64,000 nt of DNA from Lytechinus pictus (GCF_037042905.1 NC_087250.1:10418001-10482000); one strand, 5' to 3'; numbered from the stretch's first letter, positions 14,907-50,934 are shown. Notes: generated from the letters alone by a model not told the origin. Made by a program: numbers and translations.

Positions 14907-14991
14907 ATGCAGGCGACACGAGCATCCCTGTGGGGCTCACTCCTCCTGATAATAGGAGCGACTAATTTGCAGATATCCAACGCTCAAACTG
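14907..14991 (+). CDS. Exon 1: signal peptide [28 protein letters not shown]
   Basis: Basic N-terminus, hydrophobic core, SNA|Q cleavage-like site; donor G|gtaagt, phase 1. Confidence 0.85.
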
Positions 14992-17900
14992 GTAAGTCAT
15001 AACTTCCACGTAAATTGTGAGATAGCAATACATTTTCAATGTGATAGGGAAAAGAAGTACTGCGTTTTTAAAGAAGTCTACGTAAGAGAATTAACAAAAA
15101 CATACGTAGGAGTGCACTTGATTATTCTTAAAATAAGTGCCGAAATTTAGAAATCGAAGGATAAGGAAGTAACTTATTCACAAACTTGCATGTTAAAGGG
15201 ACTTACTTTATGATGGATCAGATTTTTAGGTTTAGATGTATACACTCGGTAGTTTTCGCCCCGCGAAGTAGAACGCGTTCAAAAACATAGAAAATGTATT
15301 GTCAAATGTTCTTTATGACAAAGAACAACCAAGCAATCTTTGTCAAAAAAAACGGTGAATCAGAGCAGCAGTTTCGTCCATAGACAGGACAAACGATCGA
15401 CATATTCGCATTTTCTTTTGACAGTTCCGAAACGTAGGACGATACTTCTGCTCCGGGTTGACCAATTTTCGATAAAGACTTCTCAGTGGTTCATAATCAT
15501 TTGGCAGACATTTTCAATACAATTACTGTGTTCTTTAATACATTCTGCGTCCCGTAACACAAAGGTTAGCGATTAATCGTTCGCTTGATTTTCACGATTG
15601 ATTGTACATTGTAGTCAATGAAATCAATCGTAGATAAATGGTCTACGATCATTGCTAAGTTTTGTCTTACGGGCCCCTGGGTCGCGATGCAAAAACTCCC
15701 TAATTACAATCTGATAAGAGAAGAAACGGTAAATTGCCACCTGGGCTTCACCAACGATTTGGTCTAATTGACATTATGTCATTTAATTTTAATTAAGGAT
15801 ATGTGTCTAACCATTTTGGATACTATATACTAGTTCGTCTGTATTGTTGGATGAAGAGTTTTCATTTGACAATGTAAAACATAACTGATTAGACAAAGTT
15901 GTAATAGCGTGCTTTCGATCTGCGACGGGCCTACGGGGAGCACTCGGTATACGGGGAAGTCAACAGACCGTGGCCGTACTCGAGTTGCGTTCCCGTCCTG
16001 TTCTAAACCCTTTTCGTTTGCGCTATCGACAAGTTGCGCTAACAACAAGTTGCTAAAACATTTTTGTAATTGCTTAAAATTGTTTAAAAAGTTCAAATAG
16101 TAGAGTGACGGGCTTAAACAACGTGTTTAAAATTTTTAACAGCTTTTTATATATAGACTAAACTGATTGTAGACCAAATGTTTAGCCTATATGTAGGCCT
16201 ATCGCCTGGTCTGAGATGAAAGCCCAATGGCTTGCAGACCAATGAATAAATTGAATATACCATGCTGTTCATAACTCTCGATGGTAGGCAGTTTTTGCAC
16301 CGTGACGAAGGAACACTTTCAAGAAAACAGAAAATGTATTGTCATATATCCTTCATGAGGAAGAGGTCTGTCGAAAATGAGTGAATCAAAGCGATAGTTT
16401 AGTCCTCTGGACAAACGACATATTTGCATGTTCTCATCTGCTCCAAAACTTGGGACGTAACTGCCGTTCTGGTTCACCGATTTTCGACAAAGACCTCCCG
16501 GCTGCTCATTGTCATTTGACGGGCATTTTCAAAACACTTACTGTTCTTGAATTCGTTTGTGTCGCGGTGCCCCTACTCTATGGACAACGTAGCGATAAAC
16601 AATAAAAGTAGGGCATATATCGACCACAGATGAATGACGATTCATTCGAGGAGATTGATACTCTGTCAGTAATGCCATTCTGTCATTTCCCTTTCATGAA
16701 ATCTCTTTTTCATCAAATCAAGAAAACATTCGGCTCGTTGGAGGGGAAAATGCCTACGAAGGTCGTATTGAGGTTCTACACGACGGCGGATGGGGAACGG
16801 TTTGTGACGACTCCTTCACAGACGTTGACGCACAGGTAGCTTGCCGCTCTCTGGGACTGACCGGGGGAGTCGCGCTCACACATGCACACTTCGGTCAAGG
16901 AAGTGGGCAGATTTGGATGGATAACCTAGCGTGCGATGGAACGGAGAACGCTCTTGACGAGTGTGGCCACAATGGATGGGGATCACACAACTGTGGGCAT
17001 CACGAAGACGCCGGCGTGGCATGCGAAGCACCAGCAGGTAGGTATATTATGTAAAGAAAGATTAAGATTTATCAATGGTGATGATAATAATAATAATAAT
17101 AATAATGATAATAATAATATTAACGATAATAATGATAATAATGATAATGATAATGGGGATAATAATAATAATAATAACAATAATAATAATGACTATTATT
17201 ATTATCATATTAATATGGTTAAAATGAATCTTTTTGTCTAGTATAGTTGTAGGGAAGGAACCCTTGAGAAAACAGTTCCCCAAAACGTTCTTTTCGTGCT
17301 CAAGGACCTTAACTGTTTTTTATAAAGCACTAAAACGCTTCCAAATAGCGGAAAAGCATATAACCCTTTTTTTCTAATAATGATATTTATTGTAATAATT
17401 ATAACAAAAATAACGATAATGATAATCACAATAATAATACCAGTGACGTCATATTTACTCATACAGGGTAGCCACTTCAGTTCCGGTAAATTCTTGTCCC
17501 AGTGGGCCTTGCTTACACTCTAAAAAAAACAGAGAGTCAAAATTTACCTAATATTGGGTAGAAAGGGAACATCCATGTTTGCTTGGTAATTTTCCCCTCA
17601 ATATTAGACAAAATTGCATGTTTGAAGGGTAAATTTCAACGCAACATTGCGTAAAATGTACAAAAATATTTGGCATTTTTTTACCTAACAAACACGCATG
17701 TTCCCATTTTACCCAATATTGGGTAAACCTTTTTTTTACAGTGTAACATGATAATAGGGAGTGTTCCCACAGCGAGTACGAACGATTGAGTACAGAGAAA
17801 ATGTATTGTCAATGCCATTCATGACAAAACAATTGAGAAAGAAAGAGAGAGACAGATAGATGGAGGGAGGGAGAGGGGAGAGAGAAGTGGGCATATTTTC

Positions 17901-20900
17901 GTATTTTATTATTAGGCCTATTCCTGTGACCCTCGAACTTGGAACCAATAATAAACCACCAGGTATTTTGAAATGTTTTAAGTACGTTTGGAATTGGATA
18001 AGCAGACTCGGGGGGGGGGGGGATCATAGGCATGCAACTTTAACACAAATTCAACACGGTTGAGTTCCGTCCGATGATTTTAAGTTCACCGATATCATTA
18101 TACAAGATACAAGATATTTATTTTGTCTTCGCAAACATTATTACAAAGAAATTTGTTTTCCACTGGTGTAATATACATTAGACATGCATGAACAACATCA
18201 AACAAAGAAACAAATAAGTTACACAGGTATGACGCAAATACAACAAAACATTTGCAAAAGTTTGAGTCATCCAGAATACTTATCATAATTATTAGCATTC
18301 AAATATTGTTATGCTTATTACTGACATTATTATTATTATCATTATCATTGTTGCCATCATCATCACTACTATTGCTTTTATTATATGGCAAATGTAGATA
18401 AACTCCTTGCCAAAGGACGCTAGTGCGTGTAGAATTCATGATTTATGTGGATAATAGGGAGTTTCGCAATATCAATAGGGACATGTTCTAGAACACAGTT
18501 GCCCGTATTCTGAAGTCGGGTTTAAGTTAAACTCAGGTTTAAAGTTGTGGTTTAAGTATGGGAAGCCAATAGTATCAAATTTGTTATTAAGTTGTATGTT
18601 TCTTATGTTTACTGTGCTCTTTCCTGATTCATCGATGGTGAAGCCAATAATCTTTTTATACTTCCTAAACAATTATGAATGATTTGAGAGCCAAATGAGC
18701 TGAAGTATGATATCTCTACTGTTAGTGATTTATGTAACAACTGGCTGTCCATACTATAACCACAACTTTAAACCTGAGTTTAAGTTAAACCCAACTTCAG
18801 AATACGGGCCAGTAAATCTATTGAAAATGAAAGTCAAATCACAATGGAGAGCTGAGAGGCCTTTGTCGAAAGTTGGTGGACCAGGACACCGATTCGTCCT
18901 AAGATAGGTTTGGGACGTACCGGACGAAATAATGTCGTTTGTCCAAAGTCCAGGATGACACCGCTGTTTAATTCATTCACAGATTTTCGACAAAGACTGC
19001 TTTGTCATGAGTGGCCGTTGACAACTTTCTCTTCTTTCCAGAAAGCGTCTGTGTAGTGGTTGCAAAACTCCCCAATGACACAAATTAAAACTAAAACTCT
19101 GTGTGTCTTAGGTATCCATTTGGAATTAGCAATTTTTGTATGTTGTCTTTCAATCAATCGGCACTTTTCGCATTTACTACGAGGAAACTCTCTACAACAC
19201 ACCAATTCTTTTGAAAATGCAAGTCATATCACAATGGAGAGCTGAAATGCTTTTGTCGCAAGCTGCTGGACCGGGACAGCATCGGAATCTCTTGACTATG
19301 GACAACGACATATTTGCAATTGTTCGTCCGGTGCAAATTTTCGGATGATCTGCTGTCCAAGTCCACCAACTTTCGACAAAAGCCTTTCAGCTCTCCATTG
19401 TGATTTTAAATGCATTTTAATTGTATTTTCAAAGGAATCGATGTGTTGTAGAGGGTTTCCCCGTAGTAAATGCGAAAACTACCTATTCACTTACGAGAGA
19501 CAATCTTCTTGTTTCATTCCAGCCGAACCTGACATTCGGCTTGTTGGAGGCACCAATGCTCTTGAAGGGCGCGTAGAGATCAAACACAACGGAGTATGGG
19601 GAACGGTCTGTGATGACTCCTTTTATGACAGTGACGCCGAAGTGGTCTGCCGTTCGTTGGGACTAAGTGGCGGGACGGTCCGATGCTGTGCAGCGTTCGG
19701 TCAAGGGAGCGGGCAGATTTGGCTGGATGATGTAACATGCAGCGGATACTCTGAAGACTCGCTTGGCGATTGCTATCACAGGGGATGGGGAAGCCACAAC
19801 TGCGCGCACAGCGAAGATGTGGGAGTCGTATGCGAATCAGGTATTTTCAGGTTTAATGACAGATCTTTGCAAATCGAATGGCGGTTCGCGGCGGTTTCCA
19901 ACCACCAAAGGCAAATCAGAACTTACGCATAATTGACGACGCTAATCTCGAGAGATATTTGTCACCATATCCGAAAGTGTGACCAGTGTTTCAACCACGA
20001 CCCTATGTATCAATATGTAACTTTTCCCATGTAGCTTGGAGTACTACAAGCGCACGCCACAACGCCCAGTTAGATGCTGAAGCCACGTACATGCAATGAC
20101 GTCATTGCGGCGCCATCTTTAGAGGTTCCAGGCATGATTACCTGCATCCGTTGATGATCTGATGAGAGGGAGTTTTCGAACCGTGACGCAGAACGCTTTC
20201 AAGAGCCTAGAAAATGTACTGTCAAGTGCCCACGTAACAAAGAACAGCCAAAAAGTCTTTGTCGAAAATTGGTGAATCAAAACAGCAATTTCGTTCTGTT
20301 GTTTTAATTGATTGAGTTTTGGGGGCGTTTTGTCCTGGACTGGCCAAACGACATATTTTCGATTTTTTCGACAGCTCCGAAACTTAGGTCGAAACTGCTT
20401 TCCGGTTCACCTATTTTCGACAATGGCCACCCAGCTACTAGTTGTCATATGGCGGCATTTTCAAAAGGCCTACATTTTCTATGTTTTTAAAAGCGTTTTG
20501 CGTCGCGGTGCGAAATCAAAATCTCAATGACAATGTCAGTGTCATCGGAATGAGAGCGCTAGCTATTATAATGAAATTATGACGTCATATGCGTAAGGTC
20601 TATTCTAGTATGCCGATTTTGGCAGGACTAACAAAAAGAGCATTGGTTTGTGACAATGGAAAATGACGTTAATGACACGCTTGATTAAAGAGGGGGAGAA
20701 CATGATCAACCAAGAGTGTGTACTCTCTCGTGGTAGAGATAACTAGTAGTAATGAAGAGAATGAATTAGCCTATAATCTTATTTTCCCAGAGAAACTAAA
20801 TTGCTTTGAGATAAAAAAAACAGGCCTCCTTATTTTGCTACTTGGTAATTGTGATATGAATGTATTCAGTATTGAATTAGTGTGCTATCATTCAAGTGGG

Positions 20901-23900
20901 GCTATCTTTGAAGACTACACTGCTCAGAAAGTTGCATTATGGGAAAGAACCTAGACAGATATGAGCTATTGTGTGCAATTTAACAGGGAAAAATTAATTC
21001 GCTTGCTCGTAAATTTTCAAGGGATACTCCAAGCTGAATATATTCATATCTAAATAAATAGGGTAAAATTCACAGAGGAAAATGCTTAACACTTCAACAA
21101 AATCGGATAACAAATAACGGAGTCATTTTAAAGTTTGCATTAATCCGGTGAAACAGTTCTAGGTATGCCTTCATGAATATTAGGTGGGCTGATGATGTCA
21201 CATTTGCACTTTCCCTTTTCTTATGTTATTGCATAAAATCATAATTGTTTCATTTTTTCATAAATGCGTATATGTTGTGTCTCCATTATGATGAAATAAG
21301 TTGCAGCAATAAATAACTAATGCACTTAATCAGTTATCAATCCAATCGTTTTAATTCTTGGTAGAACAATTTTGAATAAACATAATTTCATATAATAAAA
21401 TACAGGCCTAGAACTGTTTCACCGGAATAATGCAAATATTTAAAATTCAATAACTTTATTTGTTATCCGATTTTGATCAAATTTTCAGCATTTTGCTGTG
21501 AATTTTATCATATTTATATATATAAATGATTGATTTGATTTAATTATTTCCACGTAATAATCTTTTTTTTCTCAGCATCCGATTATTCATCCTACGATTA
21601 TTCATCCTACGATTACTCATCGTACGATTATTCATCCTACGATTATTCGTCCGATTACTCATCATACGATTATACTTCCGATTACTCATCCTACGATTAT
21701 TCGTCTGATTACTCATCCTACGATTATTCTTCTGATTATTCATCCTTCGATTATTCATCCTACGATTACTCATCCTACGATTATTCATCCTACGATTATT
21801 CATCCTACGATTATTCATCCTACGATTACTCATCCTACGATTATTCATCGTACGATTATTCATCCTACGATTACTCATCCTACGATTATTCATCCTACGA
21901 TTATTCATCCTACGATTATTCATCGTACGGTAAGAATGTCACAGCATTTTCAGAGCCTTATGAACCACCCCTAAATTTTTTTCAAGCCCCCCCCCCTGGA
22001 AATTACGTTGTTATGCTATTATGCATATCACTAGGCCTCTTTTACCAAATAAACAAAGATTCACGTTTCACTAACCTTTTTGGGAGGGGTTTGTGCCTTC
22101 ATTTGGTCTTTTTTTTTTGGGGGGGGGGAATCACCCAGTTTTGCGAGTAAGACTTTTTTTTTCAAAATATTGTTCATGAAAATCACCTTCACTTTTGGAG
22201 TGAAATTTTTTTATTTTTTTAAATTTGTTTATCGAATCCAAGCCACGGCGTGTTTTCTTTCCTTCAGCAATAAATTAACCCACATTGTGCCGAAGTGAAT
22301 GGGAATATGGTAGGAATTTGTTCCTTGAAACGCGGCGCGCGTAACAGCTGCTCTACTGTATAGCGCTTAGAGACTTCTGAAAAAGTAAGTGCACTGGCGG
22401 ATCCGGGGGGGGGGGCACAGCCGGCCTGTGCCCCTCTTTAACAGTGGAGACCTATATTTCGTGGAGGAAATGTCCTTAATTTTTGGTTGGAAACCTTTTT
22501 TTTTTTGCTTGTCAAATTTTTCCTCGGGATAATGCCCCCTCCCCCTTTGGAAAATCTTGGATCCGCCCCTGAGTAAGTATTAAGCGCTCTAGAAGCAAGT
22601 ATAGTTGTTATTATTAGTAGTATATAATAACGGGGAAATACAGAAGAAAATCCTAAAAAACTACAAAATGTAAAAATATATAATGAATGGGTGATAAAAC
22701 TTAAGAGAAACTATGATAATGAAGTTAAACCTAATATTAATAAAATTATAATAGTGGGAGAGAGAAGGTTGAGTTCCGACAGAGCGTTGCTTTTTATTAG
22801 ATCTCCTTCACTTTAATTTCGTGATGCACTGTAGGCCTATATATCTACTATTTGATATTTACATGTAGAATTCACGATTTATGCATAATAGGGTGTTTTC
22901 GCAATTTCAAAGGGGACATATTCTAGAACACAGTAAATCTATTGAAAGTGAAAGTCAAATCACAAAGGAGAGCTGAGAGGCCTTTGTCGAAAGTTGCTGG
23001 ACCTGGACAACATCGGAATTTCTTGACTCTAGACAACGACATATTTGCAGTTGTTCGTCCGGTGCAAATATTCGGATTATCTGCTGTCCAAGTCCACCAA
23101 CTTTCGACAAAAGCCCCGATCAGCTCGCTAATGTGATTTTAATTGCATTTTCAAAGGAATCGATGCGTTGTAGAGGGTTTTCCCGTAGTAAATGCGAAAA
23201 ATACTTTTTCACTTATACGACAAACAATCTTCTCGTTTCATTTCAGCCGAACCTGACATTCGGCTTGTTGGAGGCACCAATGCTCTTGAAGGGCGCGTAG
23301 AGATCAAACACAACGGAGTATGGGGAACGGTCTGTGATGACTCCTTTTATAACAGTGACGCCGAAGTGGTCTGCCGTTCGTTGGGACTAAGTGGCGGGAC
23401 GGTCCGATGCTGTGCAGCGTTCGGTCAAGGGAGCGGGCAGATTTGGCTGGATGATGTGACATGCAGCGGATACTCTGGAGACTCGCTTGGCGGTTGCTAT
23501 CACAGGGGATGGGGAAGCCACAACTGCGCGCACTATGAAGATGTGGGAGTCGTATGCGAACCAGGTAGGCCCCCTATTTACATCAAATTTTCAGGTTTAA
23601 TTACAGATCTTTGAGAATCGAATGGCGGTTCGCGGCGGTTTTCAACCACCATGAGCAAATCAGAACTCACGCATAATTGACGACGTTATCCTCGAGAGAT
23701 TGGAGAGAGTGTGTATGTGTGTGCGTGTGTTATGTTAGGGTGTGTGGGTGAGCGTGTAGTTGCGTGCGTGTGTGTGTGTCGGTGAGGGTAAGGGTTTGTA
23801 GGATTGATTTTGGACAGATATGTATCACTCAAATTATTTAGGTCTGGGACCGACCTAACCGTCACCATATCCCGATAGCGTGACCAGTGTTTCAACCACG

Positions 23901-32900: not shown

Positions 32901-35900
32901 TTTAAGTGAATATTTATCCTCAGTCGAAGTATACCATCCATTAGCACTATGTGGATTAACCTTCAGATAACCTTACTATGTATTGAAATCATCGTTGGCT
33001 GGAGGACAGGAAGATAAAACCCCTTATTATGACCGTTCGGATCCCCCAAACAATAAATTAAATATCGTTTGGTTTGTATTCATCATAGTCTAAGGATTAC
33101 AGCAGAAAAGATGTGGTGACATTGCACAGCCTTGCGGAAGACCTCTCCTTTTATCTTCCACATGAAACTTGAATTTAATATGGTCAAGATATGAAATATC
33201 TTAGGTCACAGATGGTTTTAAACGTAAGAGCAGAACGCATGCAAGAACACAGTAAATGTATTGACACTGCAAGGTCGCGAGGTCTTTGTCAAGAATTGTC
33301 GAACCGGAAAAGCAGTTTCGTCCTGAGTTTTGGAGGTGACAAAAATTTGTCCAGATTCCTGAACATAACAGCTGTTTTCACGGTATCATGACATCATGAC
33401 ATCCAGCGACATTTGCTCTGGTCTTAATATCTCAGAGAGCATAGGGTTAGATTTAGGATTGTAATTATAGTTTTTTGTTCAGAATAATACAAAGCTAGGG
33501 ACTAGGTTTATTCAGGTTTGAGGGTTAGGTGTCATGTTTGGCTTAACGTGCATATTTTCCATCGGAGCGATTGTCGCCGGAGCAAATGTCATGGAACCAT
33601 TTTGATTCACCTAGTTTTCGACAAAGACTTCAAGGTTTTTGTTTTGTGATGAAGGAAATTTGACAATGTATTTTCTTTGTTCGTGAATCCGTCATGCGTT
33701 GTGGAGCGAAAAGTACCTAATTAAAATCCCCTTTCTGACTTGTAAAAGTCTCTGTCTGCCCGGTTGCAAATCTTTAGTGAGGTGTTGGCGAGCTAGGAAT
33801 ATCACCGTCTGGCATGAGGCTAAATGGGAAGTAGGCGAAATGGATGTATACCAATCGACAATTTACTTTTCTCTTTTCTCTCTCTTTCTCTTAGCTTGTG
33901 GATCCGATCAGTTCCAATGCTACAACGGTAATTGTATTCCAGGCTCCTGGCAATGTGATTATATCAACGATTGCTCATATAACGAGGACGAACAAAATTG
34001 TGGTGGTACGATCTCTTATGATTACTCTATATAAATATAAAGAAATACATAAATAAATAAATAAATATATATATATGTATTATATATATATATATGTATA
34101 TACATGTACATATACATACATATATATACATATATATATATAGGTATATAGTATAGTAATAGGGTGGAGCGAGTTGCTTAGATTTTAGTTGTACAGACTG
34201 TTTCCCCCTGAGGGTTCATCAGCAACAATATATAGGTATATATACCTATATATAGGTATATATATATTCATACATACATATACATATGTATATGTAATAT
34301 ATATATATATATGTCGTTTGATTTCAGCAGGTTAGCCCCATCATTAATTGAGATACTATTGTACACGGGGGCCCTGCATAACATAAAAACACATAGAAAC
34401 ACAAATATATAGAAATTTAGAGATGATACTGGAATATAGTTTAGTTTCGAATACAATATAATTTAAGTGATAAGGATTTATGTCATTTTTTTCTTCTTTT
34501 TTTTGTAGAATACACGACATATTCATGGCCACCCTGGGAACCGGAGCCTACCGAGTCTTATGGTAAGTATAAATAAACGAACGTTGAGGGCAGCAAGACT
34601 GCAAATTTTTGACGCCATCTACGTTCGTTGGTAAGATGAAGACTATTACACGTAAAGTTGGAGACTCACCATGCCGATAAATTAGTTTTAATAAATAACA
34701 AAACAGATTTACTGTATAGAGGAAAATAAAGGTGATGGTTTTATGAACCCATTACGGAATGGAGAGATGAATTTTTATTATGCTTGACGTCATGTGCGAC
34801 AACCTCTCCTATATTACATGGGATGCACATTTCATGAATTCCACTTTTTTGTTTTCATGAAACATGAATACAAAAAAAATTGTTGAAGCTGTAGAAGGTA
34901 GTTTGGAATGATGACTTGTGTCGGGTGATTTATCTAGGCCTTTACAAATGAAATGAGCTTCATATTTTTTAAAGTGTATTTATTTATTAGAAATGTTCAT
35001 TTTATGGAATTAATACTATACACGAAATAAGGAGGAGCTGATCGTCGCTTTTTAAATTAATTGTTGTATTATTCTTTAGGTGATTTTCATACAAAAAATA
35101 TTATAAAATCTCATGCATTCCCGTTTTTAAGTTAATAGCTCAATTATTGTTCGCTACTGCTCCTGCACCTACACTGAACCCACATATACAATAATATTGT
35201 GTACAATTATTACGAGGCCGCCGCCATTATCAAGTTTAGTCGCTCACGATGGCGGTCTCCAGCATTCATTTCAATTACCATTTTGTTAAATGAATAATAC
35301 AGTTCGTTGGTATTTATTTTCATTGCTTATATTACTCTTTAGTGTACTGTTGATTTGTTCTGTAAAACCTTTCTATGTGTTATGTTCCGGGGTTAAGATG
35401 TACACCCATCCTGCTGTTATTATTATTTATTATTATTATTATTATTATCATTATCGTTATTGTTATTCATGTACAGAAGTACATATAATATTTTCCTTCC
35501 TCGATGGAGTTATCCAACGAATAGCATTTTGCCCGAAGCGCACAGCGCTGAGGGAAAATATTCTCCCGAGAAGAATATACAACTTCGGAGCAGTGTCGCC
35601 AGGTTCATGCTGAAGAAAATGCCCAAATCCCCAGATTTCCAAATAAATTCAGATAAAAGTCGGGACTGTTACTGCCCCAAAAATAGTTTATGGACTGTGT
35701 GTTCTCCTACACTGAACATGATAACAAATGGCCTTTTCACACGTGAATCTTGAATCATCATTGTAATGATGATCCGCCATTCGTCTTTATAATCATCGGA
35801 CCTTTCACACGCTCACTCGAACACTGATTTGAATTCGAATTCCCGAGCGAAGGCGGTATGTGTCCTTGGTGACATGTCAATCAAAGCACTGCATCGCAAA

Positions 35901-38900
35901 TACAATGCACTTCCTTTTATTTCCGTGATACAATGCTTAAAAGTTCACGTAATTAAGCTCCGCCCTATGATGTTTTGGAGGTCAAGCTTTTCACACGTAC
36001 AATTCGTATCGTAATTTGCGTTAATCTTAACTGGAATTAACCTCCGGAGTAGAATTTGAATTCGTGATTGTGATTAGCGTTCGTGATTCTAATAATGTTC
36101 TAATATGGTTTCACACGTGCTAAAAATACGTCATTGGCTTTATTTTCCACTGCATGGAATCATCAATTTTTTTTACCGTGTGAAAGGGTGGAATATAAGT
36201 GTTGCCAATCTCAAATGACAAAAAAATCAAAGACTGCAAATTCCGGATTCAGGTTCGCGAAATATGTTTTTGAGCTGTCGGTGGAAACACTGATTCTCTC
36301 TTTTTGGTTTAACTTTTAAAGGTTGCATGCCCGACGAATTCAGATGTTCCAATGGTTCTTGTATACCTCATTATTGGATTTGTGATCATTTCACCGATTG
36401 TCCCAACGACGAAGATGAGGAGGATTGCGGTGAGTTTGAGTTGGTTTACTACTATCTTTATTTTTTGTTAATTTAGAGAAAAACAATAGTGTTAATCTTG
36501 GTATAGGGTACTCAGCCGAGCAAGGAGTTTCACTCACCTGCGTATGCTCGAGGCAGCATAATATATTCAGCTAACTGACCCTATTCTCTGCCGCCAGATG
36601 TTCGAAAGAACCTTTGCGTTATTTTAGTTACTTTGCTTCAATTTACGGCTGTATTAAAATCCTATGTCTACCTTGACAGCTAATCACAGCTCGTCTATTA
36701 ATTTGTTTTCTCCTCCATTGATATTAGTCATAATACATTTTTGAAATATATTTAATGTGTATAAATAGTGACGATGGTTACTTTTTGAGGAACGTGTCAC
36801 ACATGAATTTGGTGTAATACCATATAATATACAGCAAACAGCGTTGTAAAAAGTTTAAATAGCTTTTTTTGCGTGAATGCTTTATCATTCTTTTTTATGA
36901 AAGATTGAAATATATACCATTTACACATATACGTATCCATGTCTTGCAAAAATAGACCCTCTTTCCCAATTTTGGCAACCTACTTACCCTTTCCATTAGG
37001 ATGTATGTTTAATGCCCTGGAAAGCGAGGGGGTAATGCGTACACTGCAAAAACTCCGGTGTTGATTTATTACCAGCCCGGAATCTATATATGTCCACACC
37101 AGAGGAGTGTTAAACAACACCAGTTTCGTTTTGGTCTAAGACCAGATAGGTGTTTATACAACACTAATTAGTATTGAAACAGCATCGGTTTGATTCCAAA
37201 CTGGTGTTGTTTCAATACTTCTCCGGTGTGGACACATATAGATTTCGGGCTGGTGTTAAATCAACACCGGAGTTTTTGCAGTGTATATTATTTACCATAC
37301 TAGGCAGCACTCCTCCCCCACCCCCGCTCCGGAAATCAGGATGGTACTCTTAAATATAGAAATTTAATTAAAATAACCTTCATTTTTCGAGCGGATGCTT
37401 TTTTGTTGTCAATTTCTTTCCCAAGCCAGCACACCCTCTTCAAAAAATGTTCCCGGCATTACCCTGTGGCAGTGCCCCCCACCTTTTTCCAAGACATGCC
37501 GCTATTTCCCAAACGACATTTATTTATTTATTTATTTATTCATTTATCTATTTATTTATTTATTCATTTATCTACTCATTTATTTATTCATTTATTCATT
37601 TAATTATTTATTCATTCGTGTTTTCTTTATAAAAAGCAGGGTAGTCCCTTCTTTACAAGGGAGCCCTGCTATCATTAAAATTCGAACATCATACAATCAT
37701 AATTATAACAAAACAATTAAAATACACAATACAAAAATAATATATATACATAAAACAATGGGAGGAATAAGGCCCATACATATGACAAACGTAGTGTAGG
37801 TAAGGTTATGTCGTCCAAAATACATGTTTTATGTCAATTTCTTTCTTTCCATCATAAAAGACAGAAAATAGTAGGGGGACATTTGATATGGTGCCCCCTA
37901 CTATTTTGGGTAGGGGGGACACGTCCCCCTGTCCCCCCCTGGAATTTCCGCCCATGCTGGTAACAAATTGAATAGTTTGCTGCTGGAAAGGACTGTTTTT
38001 TATACTCGGTTCTTGGTTTTGCGAGATACATGTTGGTAGAGTAGGCGGCTGTAGGCCTACACCTTTTTAAGATCTGGGACCGGCAACACAAAGGTTATTG
38101 ATTAATCTCTAAATGAAATAGCCTATCAAGATCATCGTTGCATGCGCGTTTTGCTTAGTAGACCGACCAGGAACCAATCAGAATGTTTCTTTCAAATTAG
38201 CGATTAATCGTTCATCTGTAAGCCACGGGGCTCTGAATTTTTCAATAAAGAAATATTCAAATAAATTCAATTAAACATTAATTTTCTTCCGATTGACATG
38301 TCATCCATTTTTCATGCAGAATATACAAATCAATAATACATCATTAATATAGTACAAAAAACAATGAATATAAAATACAGTAGGCCTATGCAAATTATGT
38401 ACATGGAAATAGGCGTAAAAACCCCGAAAGCAAGTGCTTGTGTCGGGATTCGCCTGTAAAAGTATAATTATGTCTAAACAACAATTTTGAAAAAATAAAA
38501 ATTCCAATGGTTCGCGGCATGGGTTAATAAGGGCCAACTTAATGTAAAAGACGTAAATAAACTAGACAACTTTGAGGTTACGTGTAACTGTCTTTAATAA
38601 CCATGGCCAAGAGACCAAGACTAGGTGGCGCGCTTACACTTTGCGCTTGCAACATCGAATCATCATTATAATGCTAGCGTCGATTTTTGTTTTTGTCCAT
38701 AGATTACCCCACACCAAACCCTGCAGGCTATTTCGAATGCCCAGAAGGCACTATCATACCTAGCAGCGACCAATGCAACGGATACGTGGACTGCTCAGAT
38801 CACTCTGACGAAGCGTTTTGTGGACCGAGTAAGATTTTTATTTTATACAGGAGTTTCTGCATTTTATTCATAAATCAATAACAAGTGAAAAAAAACCTTT

Positions 38901-41900
38901 ATACAATAACAATGACATAAATGAGTACATTTTTTGTGTGACAATCGAAAATATAAATAATGTATAAGACTGAAAACTACATGAATGAAGCATGTAAAAT
39001 AATAAGTTGGGTAAACATGCAGGGGCCAGCTATAATAAGCAGTTACACTGCTTGAAACAATAGCAGACGTAAGGACGGTACATATCCTTAATAGGTTAGA
39101 GATATATATTTCGATAAAATGATGTCACGAAGTAAAAAGTATGAAAGTTTAGATTTTCTTGTGGGGAGAGATAAGATAAGATTTACAATAGGGCATTTTC
39201 GCAATCACTACATAGACGCTTTCTATAACGCAGAGAATATGTTGTCAAAAGCCCTGGCCCGTATTCTGAAGTCGGGTTTAACTTAAACTCAGGTTTAAAG
39301 TTGTGGTTTAAGTATGGGAAGCCAAAAGTATCAAATTTTTTATTAAGTTGTATGTTTCTTATGTTTACTGAGCTCTTTCCTGATTCATCGATGGTGAAGA
39401 CAATCATCTATTTATACTTCCTACACAATTATGAATGATTTGAGAGCCGAATGAGCTGAAGTATGATATCTCTACTGTTAGTGATTATGTAACAATTGGC
39501 TGTCCATACTTAAACCACAACTTTAAACCTGAGTTTAAGTTAAACCCGACTTCAGAATACGGGCCCCTGTGTCGCCCAAGACTCTGACTGAACAAACGAC
39601 ATGATTATGTGCGGTATTTTGTCCGGTCCGAATATGAAGACGATGTGCTGTCCCGGTCCAACAACTTTCGACAAAGACCTCTGATCTGTCTATTGTGATT
39701 TGACGGGCATTTTCAATAGATTCTGAACGATACAGAAAGATTCTAAGAAAGGGGATGTTAAACCCCGGGGGGCCACTTACATTGACGAGTGAATACCATG
39801 CGCGACCAAAAAAACACGTAAAAAGGATGTCTTTTTCAAGATAGGGCACGTTACGTACGTAACTTGATAAGGGTGTCAAAACACAAAAATAATGAAAAAA
39901 GGGTATCTATTCCGCTATGAAAGGTACGTGTTTAGGGTCAAATTTTCGGGGATGATAAAACAAAATTAAAATGCTTCATAAAGGATGCCCTTTTTGCCCC
40001 AACACTACATGTGTAGGGTCCGATTTGCGAGAGGTGTGGAAGGTGGAGCCGTAGGCCTACTAAACCAAATGGTGTGTAAAGGTAAAACAATAAAATATCG
40101 CTGTACTTGTTTAGGGGTTAATTTCAGAGAATACTTGCCAAGAGTATCGTTTTGTTTCCAATACTTGATAGGGTAGGGTTTCAGACGCCAATACTTGTTA
40201 AGGGGTGCATTTTCAGAATATGAAAAATACGTGTTTAGGGTGCTTTTCGAGACCCCATGGTCGTGCATGGTATCCACTCGTCAATGGAAGTGGCCCGGGA
40301 TGTTAAAATAGGCTATTTAGTGCATTCAGTCATTACGTAACATTCAAGAAGGGAATATGTCTCTTACCATGCTAGGATTTGGTTTGGTTTTATTTACCGC
40401 ATAAAAATCACAATAAAATACATTTCACAAGATATTAGATTAAATATAAATATATAAACATGCACATAAAAATATACGGATGGATCACTCTATTCAGAGC
40501 CATTGATATAATGGCTGTGTTCTTCCTAGAGGTCCAGTCAAGGTAATCAAAGTAACGAAGTTAATCCTAGTGATATAATTGGTTGTGCAGCCCACTATTA
40601 TTATCATTATTATTAATAATATCATTATCATTATTATTTTTATATGTTATAATTCTAATATTGTTGTTATCATTATTATCATCATCATCATAATTATTAG
40701 TATTATATCATGCGTTATTATACCGTTTTAAAGCAAGTGAAAACATTTTGAAATCTTTTGGAAATAATATTGAAAACATTTTCAGCATACTGGGTCCCTT
40801 TATCGACTTTATGATGGTGTACATGATTCAGTCTTTAAAAAGTGGATTATTTTTATTGAAAATATCTGAACAATGGTTTTATTTTACATGCTGATGGGGG
40901 TAATTTAAATTTACATTTTCTCAGCTTGCCAATGGTATGAAGAATTCGAATGCGCGGATGGCATGTGCATTTCGAGCGACCAGTTCTGCGATGGCGTCAA
41001 CGACTGCCCATTATATGGCGAGGACGAGTGGTATTGCGGTAAGCATTGAAGTCCCTCTAAAGTGGGTTATTTCCGATTCGTCTAGTTCCAATTCGTCCAA
41101 TTGCCAACTTGTCTACTATGATTTGGTCTACCATCAGTTCGTCCACTATCCACATGGTCTAATTGCCAATTCGTCGACTCATCGTTTCGTCTAATAATCA
41201 GTTGGTCCAATAGTCATTTAGTCCATATACCACTTGGTCTAATTGGACTAAGTGTTCATTGTGGAAGATGAATTAAAATAAAATTGATATTATACCAACT
41301 AGTTATGAGACGAAATGGTCATAGTCGAAATGGTGATTAGACGAAGTGATGATTGGACCAAATGGTTATTGGATCAAACTGTTGTTAGACGAAATGTTGA
41401 TGGACGGAATGGCACTATACTAAATGAAAGAAGACCATGTGGTGGGTGGACGAGTTGGCAATTTACCCTCTAAAGTTTTGTGACGTCGTTGGATTAAAGT
41501 CCATTACGACGTTTTCAAAACCCTTTGCGACGTTACTTAAAACCCATTATAACGTTATTAAAAGCCAATTAGAAAGAAAAATTCGATGTAAACATACTTG
41601 ATGAGGAGAGTTGTCTGAAACACAGAACTTTGCTTCTTATTGACATATCTTTATGAATTGCATTAGAGAAACAGAAAATTGTCGAAAAAAAAAACAACAG
41701 GAGTTAAAGAATCTATTTTAGTCATGTAAAAGTCTTTTTGAACAAGGTCTGTTGTGAATCAGAAACAGGGAAATAAAAATTATGCACATAATAATCTCAA
41801 TGTATTTCAATCAGTAGGCCTATATTCGGCGTGCATCGAATCGAAGTAAGTGCAGTTTGAACAATGAATGCTGACGAAAACAAGGCTTCAAATAATTAAT

Positions 41901-44719
41901 TCTTTCGATTGAGTTACAAATGTGACTGCTTGCTTTTACACAGGAACGGATTATTCATATTTTGATTCCTGGGCCGATTATGATTCCTGGTCCTATTGCA
42001 TAAAAGTTACCAATATGGCAACTTTGCCATGCAATGGTAACTTGCATGGAATCCTTGATTTTGGTTGGCTGTTGATCAGTGTTACCATGGTAGTTACCAT
42101 AGGACATGTAGGATGGCAAAGTTACCACAATAGTAACTCTTATGCAGCAGGGCCCATGCAAGTCCGACAACTGACCTTCCTACTCCTGGCCATCCGAGCA
42201 TGTATAGAATCAAATAACCATGGTTTCCAAGTTGAAAAATAAATGCTGACTAAAACAAAGCTTCAAACAATTCATTCTTTCGATTGAGTTTCGATGTGAC
42301 TGCTTGCCCTTATACCCAGATTTCGATTATGGTTCCTGGTCCTATTATGATTCCTGGTCCTATTATGATTCCTGGTCCGACTACTGGCCTTCGTACTCCT
42401 ACTGGCCCTCCGAGCCTGACAGTGGTACTTGCATGAATATGTGTTCCTGCGGCGAGACTGGCGACGGCGGGATCGACCAATGTAGATCTGGAGACTGCTA
42501 CTGCGATGACATCTGCAAACGTTTCGGCGACTGTTGCTTAGATAAGGACTACTACTGCCCAGTGCAAGGTATTTCACCTACATTAATTTGTTATTACAGT
42601 GTGTCCCACAAAAAAAGAGGAAACCGGGAGGTTATTTTTTTACAACATAACCAAAAGATTTTATGTCTGTCATTCAGAACATCATAGACTTCAACCTCTC
42701 CTCTTCATTTTGATACCAACAAAGTATGATATGAGTAGTTTAGGCAAAGATAAGCAAGAAGAGTTTGAAAAGTTAACGTCGAAACCATGTTGTGCAAGAA
42801 AATGAGTCGATATTTGTTTAGGACGCACAGACCCGGGGGGCGTTTCATGAAAGGACTTGTCGGACGTTTTATCCGACAAGTCCCATTTTATCCGACAGTT
42901 ACCATAGTAACAGTACCTCTCAGCCAATCAACATCAGAGAAAGATGTCAGATCTGACAACTTGTCGGATGAAAATGTTGATGAAACACTCCCCTGGCGTA
43001 GAAAAGGAATGGCTCGTTAGCATGTATCTTGTATTCTTTGTAGTTTTCTTTCACTAATCTCTTAATGAGAGATGATGCAGATACAAGTGTGAGTTTCCGC
43101 GCAAGTTGTTTCCAGCAGGCTTCAGAATTTATTGTTTTTACTCCGCAGTGCGTGATCAATTCAGTAAATGTTTGGTCTCGAAAAAAAAAAAAAGTAATAT
43201 TCTTACAGTTGTTGATGTTAAATTTATGATTGAGACATATCCAATTATTGCGATATAACCTTACTTCACAGGCGGGATTTTTGTGTGGGACGCACTGTAT
43301 TGGTCTAAATCAAACGTTAATCGCGCTAAGGATAACGTAATAACTTGCTGTCTCCATAATCGATACATGATAACAATGCATTTTGCGACCATAATTCAAC
43401 GTTGAACTCAGGTGTCCCCCTCCCACTCTCATTACTTTCCTCAAGTGATATTGTCCTATCAATTTGTTTTTACATTTTTCCTGAGCGCGGGGGGGGGGGG
43501 TTAAAATTTGTTTATGCGTTATAGAAGTATGTTTTATTATCATTATTATTATCATCTGTGATTCGGCCAATACTATACTTCCTTAATTAACTTTTGATTG
43601 CGTTGAGCGTTAACTAAAATCGAAATGGCGTTTTAAAAAGGGAATTTATTATCAATATCGTTCTCACAATTATTGTTTTTAACATTTTGACCTATTTTTT
43701 GGTTGATTTATTTTGATTTAGAATCAGGACTAGATGGCGGCCTATACTACATTGAGAAAGTCCAAGAGTTACCGGTAAGTGTTTTGTGTTAGACCACCTC
43801 TAAACAGACCTCTGCATGGCGTAATGGGAGAGAGGGCAAAGAGCCCCCCCCCCCCCCCTAAAACACCAAAAACACAGAAAAAATATAGAAAGTAAAAATA
43901 GAAATAAATGAAGAAAAAAAAAAGTTGCTCTACCAAAAATGAGAAAAAGTAAAGTAAGACGGGCGAAATATAACACTGTCTTCTAAATCTATTGTCAAAT
44001 TCTTTTCTTTGTATGTAGAGGGACAACAATTTAATAGCATCATATATATCAATACGATGTACAAAGTCGAGACAAGTAATTTCAAGGAGGGTCAACATAC
44101 AGTAGTGCTAAAAAGTTAGTGAACCCTATAAATGCACCCCTTCATGCTGAGTGTTGAGTGAAGACAACAACACTACAATGTCTGATGAGCCATGAGAAAT
44201 AGAAACAAACTTTATTGAATGTAATATTTTATCACCTGACATCACAATTAAATATCTAATACATGGCAGAACTAGAACACTTGAAATATGTTCATTTTCT
44301 GATGGTGCTCACTAATGTTTTAGCACCACTCTATATGAGCTGATTCGAATACAAAGAAAAAATGCAAACAAGCATAACACTGAAAATTCCATCAAAATCG
44401 GATGTAAAATAAGAAAGTTATAATATTTACAGTTTCGCTTCATTTCACAATTTCTTATCCTGTCGATATAAGTAAATAAGGAAACAGTTGTATGATGATA
44501 CCATTCAATTACTTTTGTTATTGTTTATGAAAAAAAAATCAGGTTCACGTCCGACGACGACGCGCAGCTGAGGGACAAAAGCGCCGAGCTCGCCGATCAG
44601 GCCCTAAAGAGGTCGACCAGGAAAGAGCCCGAAGACGAGAGGACCAAGCAAAGCGCCTTGAGGGACGCCGAGCTCGCGCTGCGGAGAAGGCAAGACGAGT
44701 GCGACAAGCCGAAGCCTAA
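14907..44719 (+). CDS. 17-exon gene for a secreted mosaic protein: 3xSRCR, 2 DYSSY repeat blocks, 5xLDLa, SMB-like domain, Arg-rich tail (956 aa predicted)
   Basis: All 17 exons have GT-AG boundaries and join in frame; summed length is 2871 nt; signal peptide present; no hydrophobic TM segment. Confidence 0.8.
16723..17037 (+). CDS. Exon 2: SRCR domain 1 (6 Cys, group A pattern)
   Basis: [28 protein letters not shown]...[17 protein letters not shown]; 315 nt, phase 1-1; missed by the ORF track. Confidence 0.95.
17080..17210. repeat. (AAT)n microsatellite
   Basis: Visible directly. Confidence 0.9.
18499..18809. mobile_element. Palindromic MITE with CAG target duplication (Harbinger-like)
   Basis: TIR gcccgtattctgaagt; empty site in the duplicate at about 22931; second copy at 39256-39565. 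Confidence 0.8.
19523..19840 (+). CDS. Exon 3: SRCR domain 2
   Basis: [44 protein letters not shown]; ttccag acceptor, CAG|gtattt donor; 318 nt. Confidence 0.93.
21576..21929 (+). CDS. Exon 4: coding tandem repeat, 24 DYSSY/DYSS units
   Basis: ttttctcag acceptor and G|gtaaga donor; 354 nt, phase 1-1; 15/12-nt units vary mostly at third codon positions in this frame. Confidence 0.88.
23247..23564 (+). CDS. Exon 5: SRCR domain 3 (duplicate of exon 3)
   Basis: 8 nt differences from exon 3 over 318 nt; tttcag acceptor, CAG|gtaggc donor. Confidence 0.95.
24807..25180. mobile_element. TTAA-flanked insertion (Kolobok-like) specific to duplicate copy 2
   Basis: Single TTAA at the paralogous site near 20980; two TTAA here. 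Confidence 0.8.
25807..26106 (+). CDS. Exon 6: coding tandem repeat, 20 DYSSY/DYSS units
   Basis: Same splice sites as exon 4; 300 nt, phase 1-1; begins ACDYSSY. Confidence 0.88.
27969..28209. mobile_element. MITE with CACTGCAAAAACTC TIRs and TA flanks
   Basis: Near-perfect hairpin; further copies at 37042-37283 and split at 58211-62243. Confidence 0.85.
28499..29587. mobile_element. ~1.1-kb non-autonomous TIR element
   Basis: cagtcagacggcaggtcc ... ggacctgcggtctgactg; TTTA on both sides. Confidence 0.7.
29692..29802 (+). CDS. Exon 7: LDLa module 1 ([35 protein letters not shown])
   Basis: 6-Cys LDL-receptor class A pattern; (CT)n-tag acceptor, gtaaga donor; 111 nt. Confidence 0.93.
31740..31787 (+). 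CDS. Exon 8: 48-nt linker micro-exon ([16 protein letters not shown])
   Basis: Pyrimidine tract plus acag acceptor, A|gtaagt donor, phase 1-1; paralogous to exon 11. Confidence 0.75.
32762..32791 (+). CDS. Exon 9: 30-nt linker micro-exon ([10 protein letters not shown])
   Basis: ttttag acceptor, G|gtatgt donor, phase 1-1; repeats the PWTT motif of exon 8. Confidence 0.6.
33895..34005 (+). CDS. Exon 10: LDLa module 2 ([35 protein letters not shown])
   Basis: 6-Cys LDLa; paralog of exon 7; 111 nt, phase 1-1. Confidence 0.93.
34509..34562 (+). CDS. Exon 11: 54-nt linker micro-exon ([18 protein letters not shown])
   Basis: ttttgtag acceptor, G|gtaagt donor, phase 1-1. Confidence 0.78.
36322..36429 (+). 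CDS. Exon 12: LDLa module 3 ([35 protein letters not shown])
   Basis: 6-Cys LDLa; taaag acceptor, G|gtgagt donor; 108 nt. Confidence 0.92.
37042..37283. mobile_element. MITE with CACTGCAAAAACTC TIRs and TA flanks
   Basis: Long inverted arms. Confidence 0.85.
38703..38828 (+). CDS. Exon 13: 4-Cys LDLa-like module 4 ([42 protein letters not shown])
   Basis: DCSDHSDE motif; catag acceptor, A|gtaaga donor; 126 nt. Confidence 0.85.
39256..39565. mobile_element. Palindromic MITE, same family as 18499
   Basis: gcccgtattctgaagtcggg ... cccgacttcagaatacgggc; CTG flanks. Confidence 0.8.
39763..40299. mobile_element. TIR element with 8-9 bp target duplication (G)ATGTTAAA (Mutator/hAT-like)
   Basis: ggccacttacattgacgagtg ... 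cactcgtcaatggaagtggcc; a related fragment lies at 1-385. Confidence 0.75.
40925..41038 (+). CDS. Exon 14: LDLa module 5 ([37 protein letters not shown])
   Basis: 6-Cys LDLa; ctcag acceptor, G|gtaagc donor; 114 nt. Confidence 0.92.
41944..42202 (+). pseudogene. Disrupted partial duplicate of the 5' part of exon 15 ([16 protein letters not shown]...), interrupted by a MITE
   Basis: Upstream intron 41864-41943 matches 42241-42319; after the MITE, tccgacaactga replaces tccgactactgg (Trp to stop). Confidence 0.65.
41988..42155. mobile_element. Small MITE inside the pseudo-exon
   Basis: tgcataaaagttac ... gtaactcttatgca inverted ends; related to 30441-30601. Confidence 0.7.
42320..42568 (+). CDS. 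Exon 15: YYDSWS repeats plus somatomedin-B-like domain (10 Cys)
   Basis: [24 protein letters not shown] signature; cccag acceptor, AAG|gtattt donor; 249 nt, phase 1-1. Confidence 0.9.
42597..43297. mobile_element. Tc1/mariner-type MITE (TA flanks) with a nested small MITE at about 42833-42995
   Basis: ta|cagtgtgtcccaca ... tgtgggacgcactg|ta. Confidence 0.75.
43722..43774 (+). CDS. Exon 16: [18 protein letters not shown] (phase 1 to 0)
   Basis: tttag acceptor, CCG|gtaagt donor; 53 nt. Confidence 0.72.
44099..44332. mobile_element. Tc1/mariner-type MITE
   Basis: cagtagtgctaaaaagttagtga ... tcactaatgttttagcaccact. Confidence 0.55.
44543..44719 (+). CDS. Exon 17: terminal Arg-rich tail [58 protein letters not shown]
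   Basis: atcag acceptor; GC-rich island ends at TAA 44717-44719; frame set by the phase-0 end of exon 16. Confidence 0.7.
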   Translation, partial: VHVRRRRAAEGQKRRARRSGPKEVDQERARRREDQAKRLEGRRARAAEKARRVRQAEA

Positions 44720-45272
44720 TATCCCAGTGTGGAAAGATGCATCAGCATGCTAGATGATTAACGTTCACATCAAAATGAAATTACAGTTACTCATAATTAC
44801 ATCACACAGTTACATCACACAATTCTACAATTACAGTTACACTTCAGTACATCATTCATGTGTATACTCCCCAACTTAAGATTTTGTAAGCATGTTTTTG
44901 TCCTTGCTCAGACTGCCTGTCCTTAAAAGACGTAACAATGTTCGTGTATGTAATAATCTCTACCAAAAATTCCAGATCACTCAATTATCTACATATTCAT
45001 ATTGCTTTTATAAATACGATAATTCATAACGCGGGGGCAATAGATTTTGATTAAAGAAAGTAATGTACAAGACAACAAATTAAAACAATTACTGATATGT
45101 ATCGATTTGTTGCATCAATCACATTGTAAATAGAAATATAATATATAATTCTTAATGATACCTTGTCGGTAATTTCATGGTAAAATAATTTTATTCCTCT
45201 TTTCAAGAAAGGAGTAAATCCATTGCGCTGCTGTGCGGGCATTGGTCTCCGTTTCTTTGTTCTTGTTAATTG

Positions 45273-45301
45273 AATAAATTATTGTGAACGAGAAAAATAA
45301 A
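45273..45301 (+). terminator. Candidate polyadenylation signals (AATAAA at 45273 and 45296)
   Basis: Canonical hexamers about 550 nt after the stop, followed by GT/T-rich sequence. Confidence 0.35.
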
Positions 45302-45334
45302 CCATTCGTAAATGTTCGTTTGTTGTAAGGTGAG

Positions 45335-49739: not shown

Positions 49740-50703
49740 CTGCACGGAAACGCTAATAGAGCGTTTTCGCTCCATGACACACGACAAACTCAAGAACAAT
49801 GAAAAAGTATTGTCGAATGCAATTGAAAGAAAGAAGTCTTTCTCATAATTCTGAATCAAAACAACAATTTCGTCCTGGACTCGGGATAAATGACATTTTT
49901 GCCATTTTTCGTCAGCTCCGAAACTTAGGACGAAATTGCTGTTCCGGTTCACCAATTTTCGACACAGATCTCCCTGCTGTTCTTTGTTATTCGAAGAACA
50001 TGTTAAATATTTTTACAGTGATCTTGAATCCATTGCGCGTCGCGAGTGAAAACCTGCTCAAAAAGGCACCTGTTACGAATCAATGTTGCCGCGATACCAT
50101 ATAGGGATTTTTCGCAACCGCTAAAGAGACGCATTCGGGAACGTAGAGAATCTATTGTCAAAAGCCCTTCATGACAAAACAGTTCTTGTCGAAAATCAGT
50201 GAATCATGATTCTGGACATGCAGGCAACAAACTTGCAAGCTTTCTTCAACTCCGAATCTCAAGACGATCTGCTATCCCGGTTGTGTTTTTTGGGGGGTCA
50301 TTACTTGTGCACCAGACACGAGAGAGCAGAGGGAATGACGTTAAAGGTTTTTTTTTTGAGACTTTGAACCACATGACAAATCTTGGACTTTTTCAAATTG
50401 CCAAAATTTTTAATTTGAAAATTATTTGAAACTCGAACCTGCGCCATAAACTCGACTGCAGGAATGACTTGTTGATTGATCCACACCAATTGAGCTGATC
50501 GAGGGGTCGGAAATAAGCATATCTCCCGACGTTTCGTGTTCATTAATATGTATGAGGCGTAGTCTGATTAAATAAAACCTTTTATATCGTCATTCACACT
50601 GCCTATCGGGTCGGAAGCACAAGTACTGACGAAAAAATATCCAATAAGAAAAAAAGAAGGCCATTCGCAAAAACAAAAACAAAAACCAAAGGCCTATACT
50701 CAC

Positions 50704-50814: not shown

Positions 50815-50934
50815 CTTTAGAAGAATAGAATAAAGAACAAAGAAGACATTATGTACATGTACATCAATATTATCAGTACATCGGAGAGGGAAGTTCAGTT
50901 TAGCTGGAAATTCCAGTTCTGCTGTCGATCTTAA

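Follow-up and report, generated by a model that had tools for sequence, protein, structure and literature searches.

In a 64,000 nt stretch of Lytechinus pictus DNA (GCF_037042905.1 NC_087250.1:10418001-10482000; the window hereafter) we identified what reads as one intact, TATA-associated Lytechinus gene of 17 exons, predicted to encode a secreted mosaic protein of the SRCR superfamily in which a novel tyrosine-rich array, (DYSSY)n, is set between binding modules. The exons lie on the + strand between positions 14907 and 44719, and when joined they give a coding sequence of 2871 nt (956 amino acids, aa) with no internal stop, from an ATG at 14907 to a stop codon at 44717-44719. The encoded order is signal peptide, SRCR1, SRCR2, (DYSSY)n, SRCR3, (DYSSY)n, five LDLa domains with Trp/Thr-rich linkers, an SMB-like domain, the short segment of exon 16 and an Arg-rich tail.

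A 17-exon gene for a mosaic protein

Stop-to-stop open-reading frames on the + strand between 14.9 and 44.7 kb comprise SRCR-like, LDLa-like and repeat-coding blocks, and a splice-site scan placed each domain block between a polypyrimidine-AG acceptor and a GT donor, with exons 2-15 all of phase 1-1. Across the gene, AG acceptors and GT donors were present at 17 of the 17 exons, the phases were compatible and the frame stayed open over 30 kb. Exon 16 takes the phase from 1 to 0, and it is because of this change that the last exon is read in the frame encoding RRRR and a strongly basic sequence, a frame which is also used by three L. variegatus models and by a partial L. pictus RefSeq model of the C-terminus (P0007). 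The linkage of the exons is based on splice logic and on the computational RefSeq models of orthologues: the small exons 8, 11 and 16 were located by tblastn and inspection, guided by the L. variegatus model P0002, whilst the 30 nt exon 9, which is required for the total of 956 aa, was located by a motif scan of the introns. Splicing these exons in frame reproduced the exon count, protein length, start and stop that an earlier note on this DNA had given. The coordinates are collected in Table 1.

Several other readings of the locus were rejected. Shorter versions of the gene with 14 or 16 exons (946 aa) are without exon 9. A candidate exon between exons 14 and 15 (Table 1) is a partial duplicate of the 5′ end of exon 15 and its upstream intron, and is absent from all five Lytechinus RefSeq models that cover the region. 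A second open frame across the last exon (44544-44753, +, 70 codons), considered as an alternative coding frame, is an effect of composition, as 4409 of 5000 codon shuffles (88%) stay open.

Table 1 Features of the gene and its flanks, in positions of the window (E, E-value; TRF, Tandem Repeats Finder).
Feature	Position	Strand	Evidence or remark
TATA-box-like TATAAA	14835..14840	+	~70 nt 5′ of ATG; pattern scan; putative promoter role
Exon 1: start codon and signal peptide, 28 codons + 1 base	14907..14991	+	GTAAGT donor after 85 nt; hydrophobic leader
Exon 2: SRCR1, 6 Cys	16723..17037	+	Pfam SRCR, E 5e-31
Exon 3: SRCR2, 8 Cys including an adjacent CC pair	19523..19840	+	Pfam SRCR, E 2e-30
Exon 4: (DYSSY)n array 1, 118 aa, 43 Tyr, net -24	21576..21929	+	TRF, 15 nt period, 24.1 copies
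Exon 5: SRCR3	23247..23564	+	Pfam SRCR, E 1.1e-28
Exon 6: (DYSSY)n array 2, 100 aa, 37 Tyr, net -20	25807..26106	+	TRF, 15 nt period, 19.7 copies
Exon 7: LDLa1	29692..29802	+	Pfam Ldl_recept_a, E 1.8e-12
Exon 8: Trp/Thr/Ser linker 1a, with WxxW motif	31740..31787	+	Matches linker of L. variegatus P0002
Exon 9: 30 nt linker 1b (LPPWTT...)	32762..32791	+	Counterpart of second half of longer L. variegatus linker
Exon 10: LDLa2	33895..34005	+	Pfam, E 6.4e-12
Exon 11: linker 2, WPPW, Thr/Glu/Pro-rich	34509..34562	+	78% identity with P0002
Exon 12: LDLa3	36322..36429	+	Pfam, E 1.6e-11
Exon 13: LDLa4, 4-Cys variant	38703..38828	+	Pfam, E 4.7e-09, profile positions 7-37 only
Exon 14: LDLa5	40925..41038	+	Pfam, E 2.1e-06
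Possible further exon of phase 1-1 (31 aa), likely a pseudo-exon, outside the 17-exon model	41944..42036	+	
Exon 15: WSYYDS repeats, then 10-Cys SMB-like domain	42320..42568	+	TRF, 18 nt period (repeats)
Exon 16: 53 nt, phase 1 to 0	43722..43774	+	94-100% identity with Lytechinus models
Exon 17: Arg-rich tail, 58 aa, RRRR near its start	44543..44719	+	Stop 44717-44719
First polyadenylation-signal-like hexamers 3′ of the stop: ATTAAA 45050, 45079; AATAAA 45273, 45296	45050..45301	+	Pattern scan; candidate signals

Binding modules and secretion

The whole protein (~105 kDa, isoelectric point 4.05) contains 118 Tyr, 150 Ser, 115 Asp and 61 Cys. All three SRCR domains are full-length matches to Pfam PF00530 (107.4, 105.5 and 99.9 bits vs. 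a gathering cutoff of 26.1, profile positions 1-100 of 100), and five of the five LDLa domains score above the gathering cutoff of PF00057 (28.3-47.7 bits vs. 24.1), LDLa4 with four Cys, not six; the repeat exons, the SMB exon and the tail gave no Pfam match at E ≤ 0.1. Three SRCR and five LDLa domains in Pfam, together with the repeats found by TRF, agree with the arrangement SRCR3-(DYSSY)n-LDLa5 proposed in the earlier note, and the acidic Tyr/Ser repeats that it placed between the binding modules were seen there in the spliced translation.

Relatives of SRCR2 in the PDB are CD163, neurotrypsin, MSR1, DMBT1 and MARCO. The motifs VCDD, LDD (MDN in SRCR1), SHNC and xED occur in all three SRCR domains, in columns conserved with CD163, and were matched to DMBT1 residues by motif. 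LDLa modules hold Ca2+ in a cage and bind basic residues of their ligands. WxxW motifs and runs of Thr/Ser lie here in the linkers that join LDLa1 to LDLa2 and LDLa2 to LDLa3, and from their consensus we take these to be possible C-mannosylation and O-glycosylation sites, respectively. For SRCR domains, Reichhardt 2020 (PMC7043408) describes surface cations, held by conserved Asp/Glu/Asn residues, that let the domains bind polyanionic ligands; heparin, hydroxyapatite and a bacterial protein are bound through such sites when Ca2+ is present, and the sites are conserved across the superfamily.

The peak 19 aa Kyte-Doolittle window of the protein lies in the signal peptide of exon 1 (1.28), and no transmembrane segment was seen, the best 19 aa window outside the signal peptide reaching 1.14 (computed on the 16-exon version, the exon added later being a 10 aa polar linker); the C-terminus is charged, not hydrophobic. 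By this hydropathy scan the protein is predicted to be secreted, with an N-terminal signal peptide and without a transmembrane segment, as the first reading of the sequence had suggested. A TGT Cys codon at 25809-25811 (+), at the start of array 2, makes the Cys total odd; the position is Tyr or Asn in the L. variegatus models and Ser in array 1, and the residue could be a free thiol or a polymorphism.

The DYSSY arrays

Arrays 1 and 2 together comprise 218 aa with 80 Tyr (~37%) and a net charge of -44, and hold 36 clean DYSSY units (19 in array 1, 17 in array 2) in addition to shortened variants, all encoded by the 15 nt repeat. The repeat portion makes up 23% of the protein, the remainder being globular binding modules. 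Every DYSSY unit sets a Tyr beside an Asp, a context that favours tyrosine sulfation.

A search of 5.8 billion proteins (longer proteins) with array 1, in which the best 8000 candidates by shared words were scored, matched only two Lytechinus proteins and one prokaryotic protein, P0003. The latter (694 aa) is of cell-surface type, with DUF11/DUF7507 domains, a C-terminal hydrophobic anchor and a long N-terminal SYDY(S/P) array, which resembles the Lytechinus repeat in composition and looks convergent.

The SMB-like domain and the Arg-rich tail

The Cys-rich domain of exon 15 scored 13.1 bits against Pfam Somatomedin_B (PF01033; gathering 23.1, E 0.13, profile positions 3-37 of 40), below the threshold. 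An exhaustive phmmer search over 1.84 billion representatives returned 17 proteins at E ≤ 0.001, two of them from Lytechinus, and a Pfam SMB domain was present in 13 of the 15 others, the nearest relatives with a name being an SMB-domain protein of Patiria miniata and PRG4-like and mucin-like proteins of fish. In an alignment of 16 sequences, eight Cys columns were invariant or conserved in 90% or more, and the Lytechinus domain adds two Cys in an insert, giving 10. Weak PDB matches (E 3-9, not significant) were SMB-containing ENPP1, ENPP2 or EndoU chains in 29 of 29 cases, and the ESM Atlas gave no usable match for the C-terminal region. The SMB assignment of the earlier note stands in part: the eight-Cys pattern and the SMB-bearing relatives argue for it, whilst the Pfam gathering score was missed, and we describe the domain as SMB-like, a probable divergent member outside formal Pfam membership.

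The 58 aa tail contains 19 Arg and 4 Lys (net +14), compared with -136 for everything else in the mature protein. A polybasic tail behind RRRR, as first noted, was seen here also, and RRRR is conserved in Lytechinus: it lies within the opening 26 residues of the tail exon, a stretch invariant in five of five Lytechinus sequences. AlphaFold2 modelled a helix over the last ~36 residues (predicted local distance difference test, pLDDT, 70-90) in the orthologous model P0007, the only confident part of that model. All three RX[KR]R matches of the protein fall in the tail, which presumably fits basic clusters of the heparin-binding type and furin-type motifs.

Orthologues and history of the gene

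The architecture, which had at first not been recognised, is already in RefSeq as three full-length L. variegatus predictions (P0002, P0004 and P0005), auto-named 'DMBT1-like' and collinear with the L. pictus gene. P0002 (XP_041467340, 'deleted in malignant brain tumors 1 protein-like', 1187 aa) has one extra SRCR-DYSSY unit, L. variegatus possessing four SRCR domains and three DYSSY arrays vs. three and two in L. pictus. The L. pictus RefSeq annotation represents the locus as two partial models, the N-terminal P0006 (XP_054757269, 422 aa; signal peptide and SRCR1 100% identical to the window, SRCR2 99%) and the C-terminal P0007 (XP_054757710, 178 aa; LDLa5 and exon 16 100% identical, tail 98%). 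Identity with L. variegatus is 92-94% in the SRCR domains, 79-95% in the LDLa domains, 53-78% in the linkers, 84-87% in the SMB exon, 94-100% in exon 16 and 95% in the tail. Within the protein cluster, no name is used other than 'DMBT1-like' or 'uncharacterized'; the sequence is known as automatic RefSeq predictions, and 'DMBT1-like' marks a resemblance, not membership. In a further L. pictus model, P0001, LDLa1 and LDLa4 are out of frame and, compared with the window, the frame switches twice inside the tail exon; this model reads as a paralogue or second copy.

A ~3.7 kb unit of SRCR exon, intron and DYSSY exon is tandemly duplicated (SRCR2-DYSSY1 to SRCR3-DYSSY2), with 81-88% identity including the introns. 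Repeat length varies among L. pictus sequences, array 1 being longer in P0006 and WSYYDS occurring three times here vs. twice in P0007. The gene is a product of exon shuffling and tandem duplication acting on exons of phase 1-1.

Generic SRCR and LDLa modules are widespread. A word-indexed search with the SMB exon matched two Lytechinus proteins, and a search of proteins of 652-2078 aa with the C-terminal 151 residues of P0002 returned only P0002 itself; within the limits of the searches made, the DYSSY array and the SMB-plus-tail module appear confined to Lytechinus. We assign the gene to the echinoid SRCR expansion. It is not an orthologue of DMBT1, because the CUB and ZP domains are both missing. 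Literature searches found neither a description of the gene nor any mention of the DYSSY string, the accessions or the LOC ids, supplementary tables, where it could appear under other ids, lying outside the search.

Genomic surroundings

The window is AT-rich animal DNA (31-44% GC over intervals of 2 kb), with no Rfam families or tRNAs over its whole length and no Pfam-recognisable exon in the 14.8 kb upstream of the gene. Just 3′ of the gene, 45175-46917 is CT/GA-rich low-complexity DNA that includes two copies of a 418 bp unit (46001-46833, 88% match). Two LDLa exons of another, convergent gene follow at 50606-50848 (-, E 2.7e-06) and 52707-52964 (-, E 8.6e-09; Pfam), and beyond these are open-reading frames of non-LTR (long terminal repeat) retrotransposons at 58665-61828 (-) and 62277-63804 (+), which encode a reverse transcriptase, a second fragment of this kind and an endonuclease/exonuclease/phosphatase domain accompanied by a PHD finger. 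Several introns of the gene hold a palindromic interspersed element of ~260-300 bp, which matches itself on both strands and resembles a miniature inverted-repeat transposable element; copies lie at 15452-15540, 16405-16552, 18810-18888, 19165-19478, 22896-23200 and 39595-39722, one of them directly 5′ of SRCR2 and one directly 5′ of SRCR3.

Possible functions of the protein

The reading we favour, tentatively and at a little under an even chance, is that the protein, a secreted and lineage-restricted member of the echinoid SRCR expansion, works outside the cell much as DMBT1/SALSA does, as a multivalent binder or agglutinin that depends on Ca2+. The SRCR domains, through their acidic cation-site motifs, would bind polyanionic ligands via held cations, whilst the Ca2+-caged acidic pockets of the LDLa modules would receive basic ligands. 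The DYSSY arrays would serve as extended, probably disordered polyanionic spacers, in the role of the SRCR-interspersed domain (SID) spacers of DMBT1, and are likely to be heavily modified, by Tyr sulfation or modification of Ser. The basic C-terminal helix may bind polyanions, either sulfated glycans of the matrix or cell surface, the protein's own DYSSY arrays or its LDLa pockets, and a furin-type convertase may free the tail at the conserved RRRR, the tail acting as an anchor until cut. Variation in unit number between species, and in repeat length within L. pictus, would fit a fast-evolving recognition gene.

Several points weigh against this. The same domain set would equally serve a structural matrix protein, and an array of ~37% Tyr is unlike the Ser/Thr/Pro-rich spacers of DMBT1 and is what would be expected of a substrate for peroxidase cross-linking or of an adhesive. 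The SRCR motifs were assigned to DMBT1 residue numbers by motif, not by alignment. The RX[KR]R matches in the tail are expected from its composition (19 Arg in 58 residues), so that the motif alone is no proof of cleavage. The two AlphaFold2 models that cover the SMB-like domain were of low confidence there, with a mean pLDDT of 45.0 (P0007) and 49.6 (the SMB-like domain with the 16-row alignment).

The leading alternative, unlikely in our view, is a cross-linkable, self-assembling polyampholyte material, as the earlier note had suggested. The Tyr-rich acidic arrays would here be dityrosine (peroxidase) or DOPA (3,4-dihydroxyphenylalanine) substrates, and would condense with the Arg-rich tail, through pairing of charges and of Arg with Tyr, or with Ca2+/Mg2+ from the seawater. 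The product would be a matrix of envelope, hyaline, adhesive or clot type, with partner proteins recruited by the LDLa, SRCR and SMB modules. Such chemistry has a precedent in the fertilization envelope, where SFE1 and SFE9, two proteins of the cortical granules, are cross-linked at their tyrosines by ovoperoxidase, an enzyme that proteoliaisin tethers (PMC3528131). The composition would suit it, as 80 of the 118 Tyr in 956 aa lie in the two arrays with their 36 clean units, and the arrays (-44) and tail (+14) are opposite in charge. However, a single +14 tail against approximately -136 cannot give a charge-balanced coacervate, and with 23% repeat only, the rest of the protein consists of globular binding modules. 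Outside Lytechinus neither the DYSSY array nor the C-terminal module was found, whereas known envelope proteins are shared with Strongylocentrotus. 'DMBT1-like' and 'uncharacterized' are the only names in the protein cluster, and nothing ties the protein to eggs, adhesive glands or clots.

A more radical possibility, which we consider improbable, is that the arrays are a new extracellular 'tyrosine polymer', in which densely sulfated or peroxidase-reactive Tyr/Asp brushes would condense with the Arg-rich helices of neighbouring molecules or with divalent cations and be locked by dityrosine, with the cut at RRRR as the switch, to form a material unique to Lytechinus-type urchins. Much less likely again is a variant in which the arrays provide a Tyr scaffold for iodotyrosines made by peroxidase. 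PMC10250714 treats as open the question of where sea urchins obtain the tyrosine for making thyroid hormone. The restriction of the arrays to Lytechinus argues against this variant.

An acidic matrix protein associated with biomineral, its Asp/Ser/Tyr arrays and Ca2+-binding modules sitting on the calcite or amorphous calcium carbonate of test, spine or tooth, seems very unlikely to us. The isoelectric point, 115 Asp and 150 Ser would be in keeping with it, as would the binding of hydroxyapatite by DMBT1 SRCR cation sites (PMC7043408) and the rapidly evolving repetitive proteins of echinoderm skeletal proteomes (PMC5460417), but the Pfam scans detected no C-type lectin or other spicule-matrix domain, and no link to a skeletal proteome was found (supplements were outside the search). 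Hardly credible is the notion that there is no functional single gene here, only domain exons that are lined up by chance or in decay, or else two genes, since the split of the L. pictus RefSeq annotation (422 aa + 178 aa) and the out-of-frame exons of P0001 are set against canonical sites and compatible phases at 17/17 exons in a frame open over 30 kb, three full-length L. variegatus models in the same order, 79-100% cross-species identity in every domain exon, and a TATA box and signal peptide at the 5′ end.

Significance

The annotation is corrected from two partial RefSeq models to one intact gene of 956 aa in L. pictus, a genetically tractable species, and the name 'DMBT1-like' fails two defining features of DMBT1, its CUB and ZP domains. 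The gene is also a clean example of a lineage-restricted mosaic, assembled from phase 1-1 exons with a duplicating SRCR-spacer unit. As merely one more immune-type SRCR gene it would be of modest interest; if the arrays are sulfated, halogenated or cross-linked, they would represent a new extracellular polyanion or material chemistry. The main interest therefore lies in the unprecedented tyrosine array and in what happens to its tyrosines.

Comparison with known systems

Short acidic Ser/Tyr repeats are shared with sandcastle-worm Pc3, dentin phosphophoryn and the prokaryotic P0003, with no homology beyond composition; Pc3 and phosphophoryn are Ser/Tyr/Asp-rich repeat proteins. Complement factor I, enteropeptidase and TMPRSS-type proteins likewise combine SRCR and LDLa domains in one extracellular protein, but there is no protease domain, FIMAC domain or transmembrane anchor here, as judged by Pfam and hydropathy. 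Vitronectin and PRG4/lubricin join an SMB-type Cys knot to an acidic or mucin-like region and a basic region, which in those proteins binds heparin and can be cleaved by convertases; in the Lytechinus protein, by contrast, the SMB-like domain is C-terminal, has an insert and 10 Cys in all and scores under the Pfam threshold, and there are no hemopexin repeats.

The fertilization-envelope proteins SFE1, SFE9 and proteoliaisin are also secreted echinoid proteins, cross-linked at Tyr in their case, and they carry LDLa arrays; SRCR and SMB-like domains are not known to be part of them. They differ in that the specific modules of this gene were seen only in Lytechinus; the comparison is one of descriptions, not of sequence.

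Members of the echinoid SRCR multigene family, which includes coelomocyte and pigment-cell genes, are similarly mosaics of single-exon SRCR modules that are lineage-specific and vary in unit number. The family is greatly expanded in sea urchins and is regarded as innate-immune in PMC10250714, and 69 'DMBT1' unigenes are listed for the toxopneustid Tripneustes in bioRxiv 10.1101/284224. No described member with DYSSY arrays, an SMB-like domain or such a tail was found in the literature or protein searches.

The likeness to DMBT1/SALSA/gp340, an agglutinin of vertebrate mucosa, lies in a secreted protein with tandem SRCR domains and Ser-rich low-complexity spacers (here between SRCR2 and SRCR3 and after SRCR3), in the putative acidic cation-site motifs of the SRCR domains and in the variable copy number of the SRCR-spacer unit. 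The CUB domain of DMBT1 is absent here (14 exon translations scanned; Pfam of P0002 gave SRCR, SRCR_2 and Ldl_recept_a only), as is its ZP domain in the same scans, the C-terminus consisting instead of the SMB-like domain and basic tail. Two Cys of CD163-type SRCR domains, one near the start and one in the middle, are missing, whilst SRCR2 and SRCR3 carry an adjacent CC. The spacers of DMBT1 are short and Ser/Thr/Pro-rich, whereas those of the Lytechinus protein are Asp/Tyr/Ser pentapeptides over 100-118 aa, and LDLa, SMB-like and basic tail modules are added. The relation to DMBT1 is one of analogy, not orthology.

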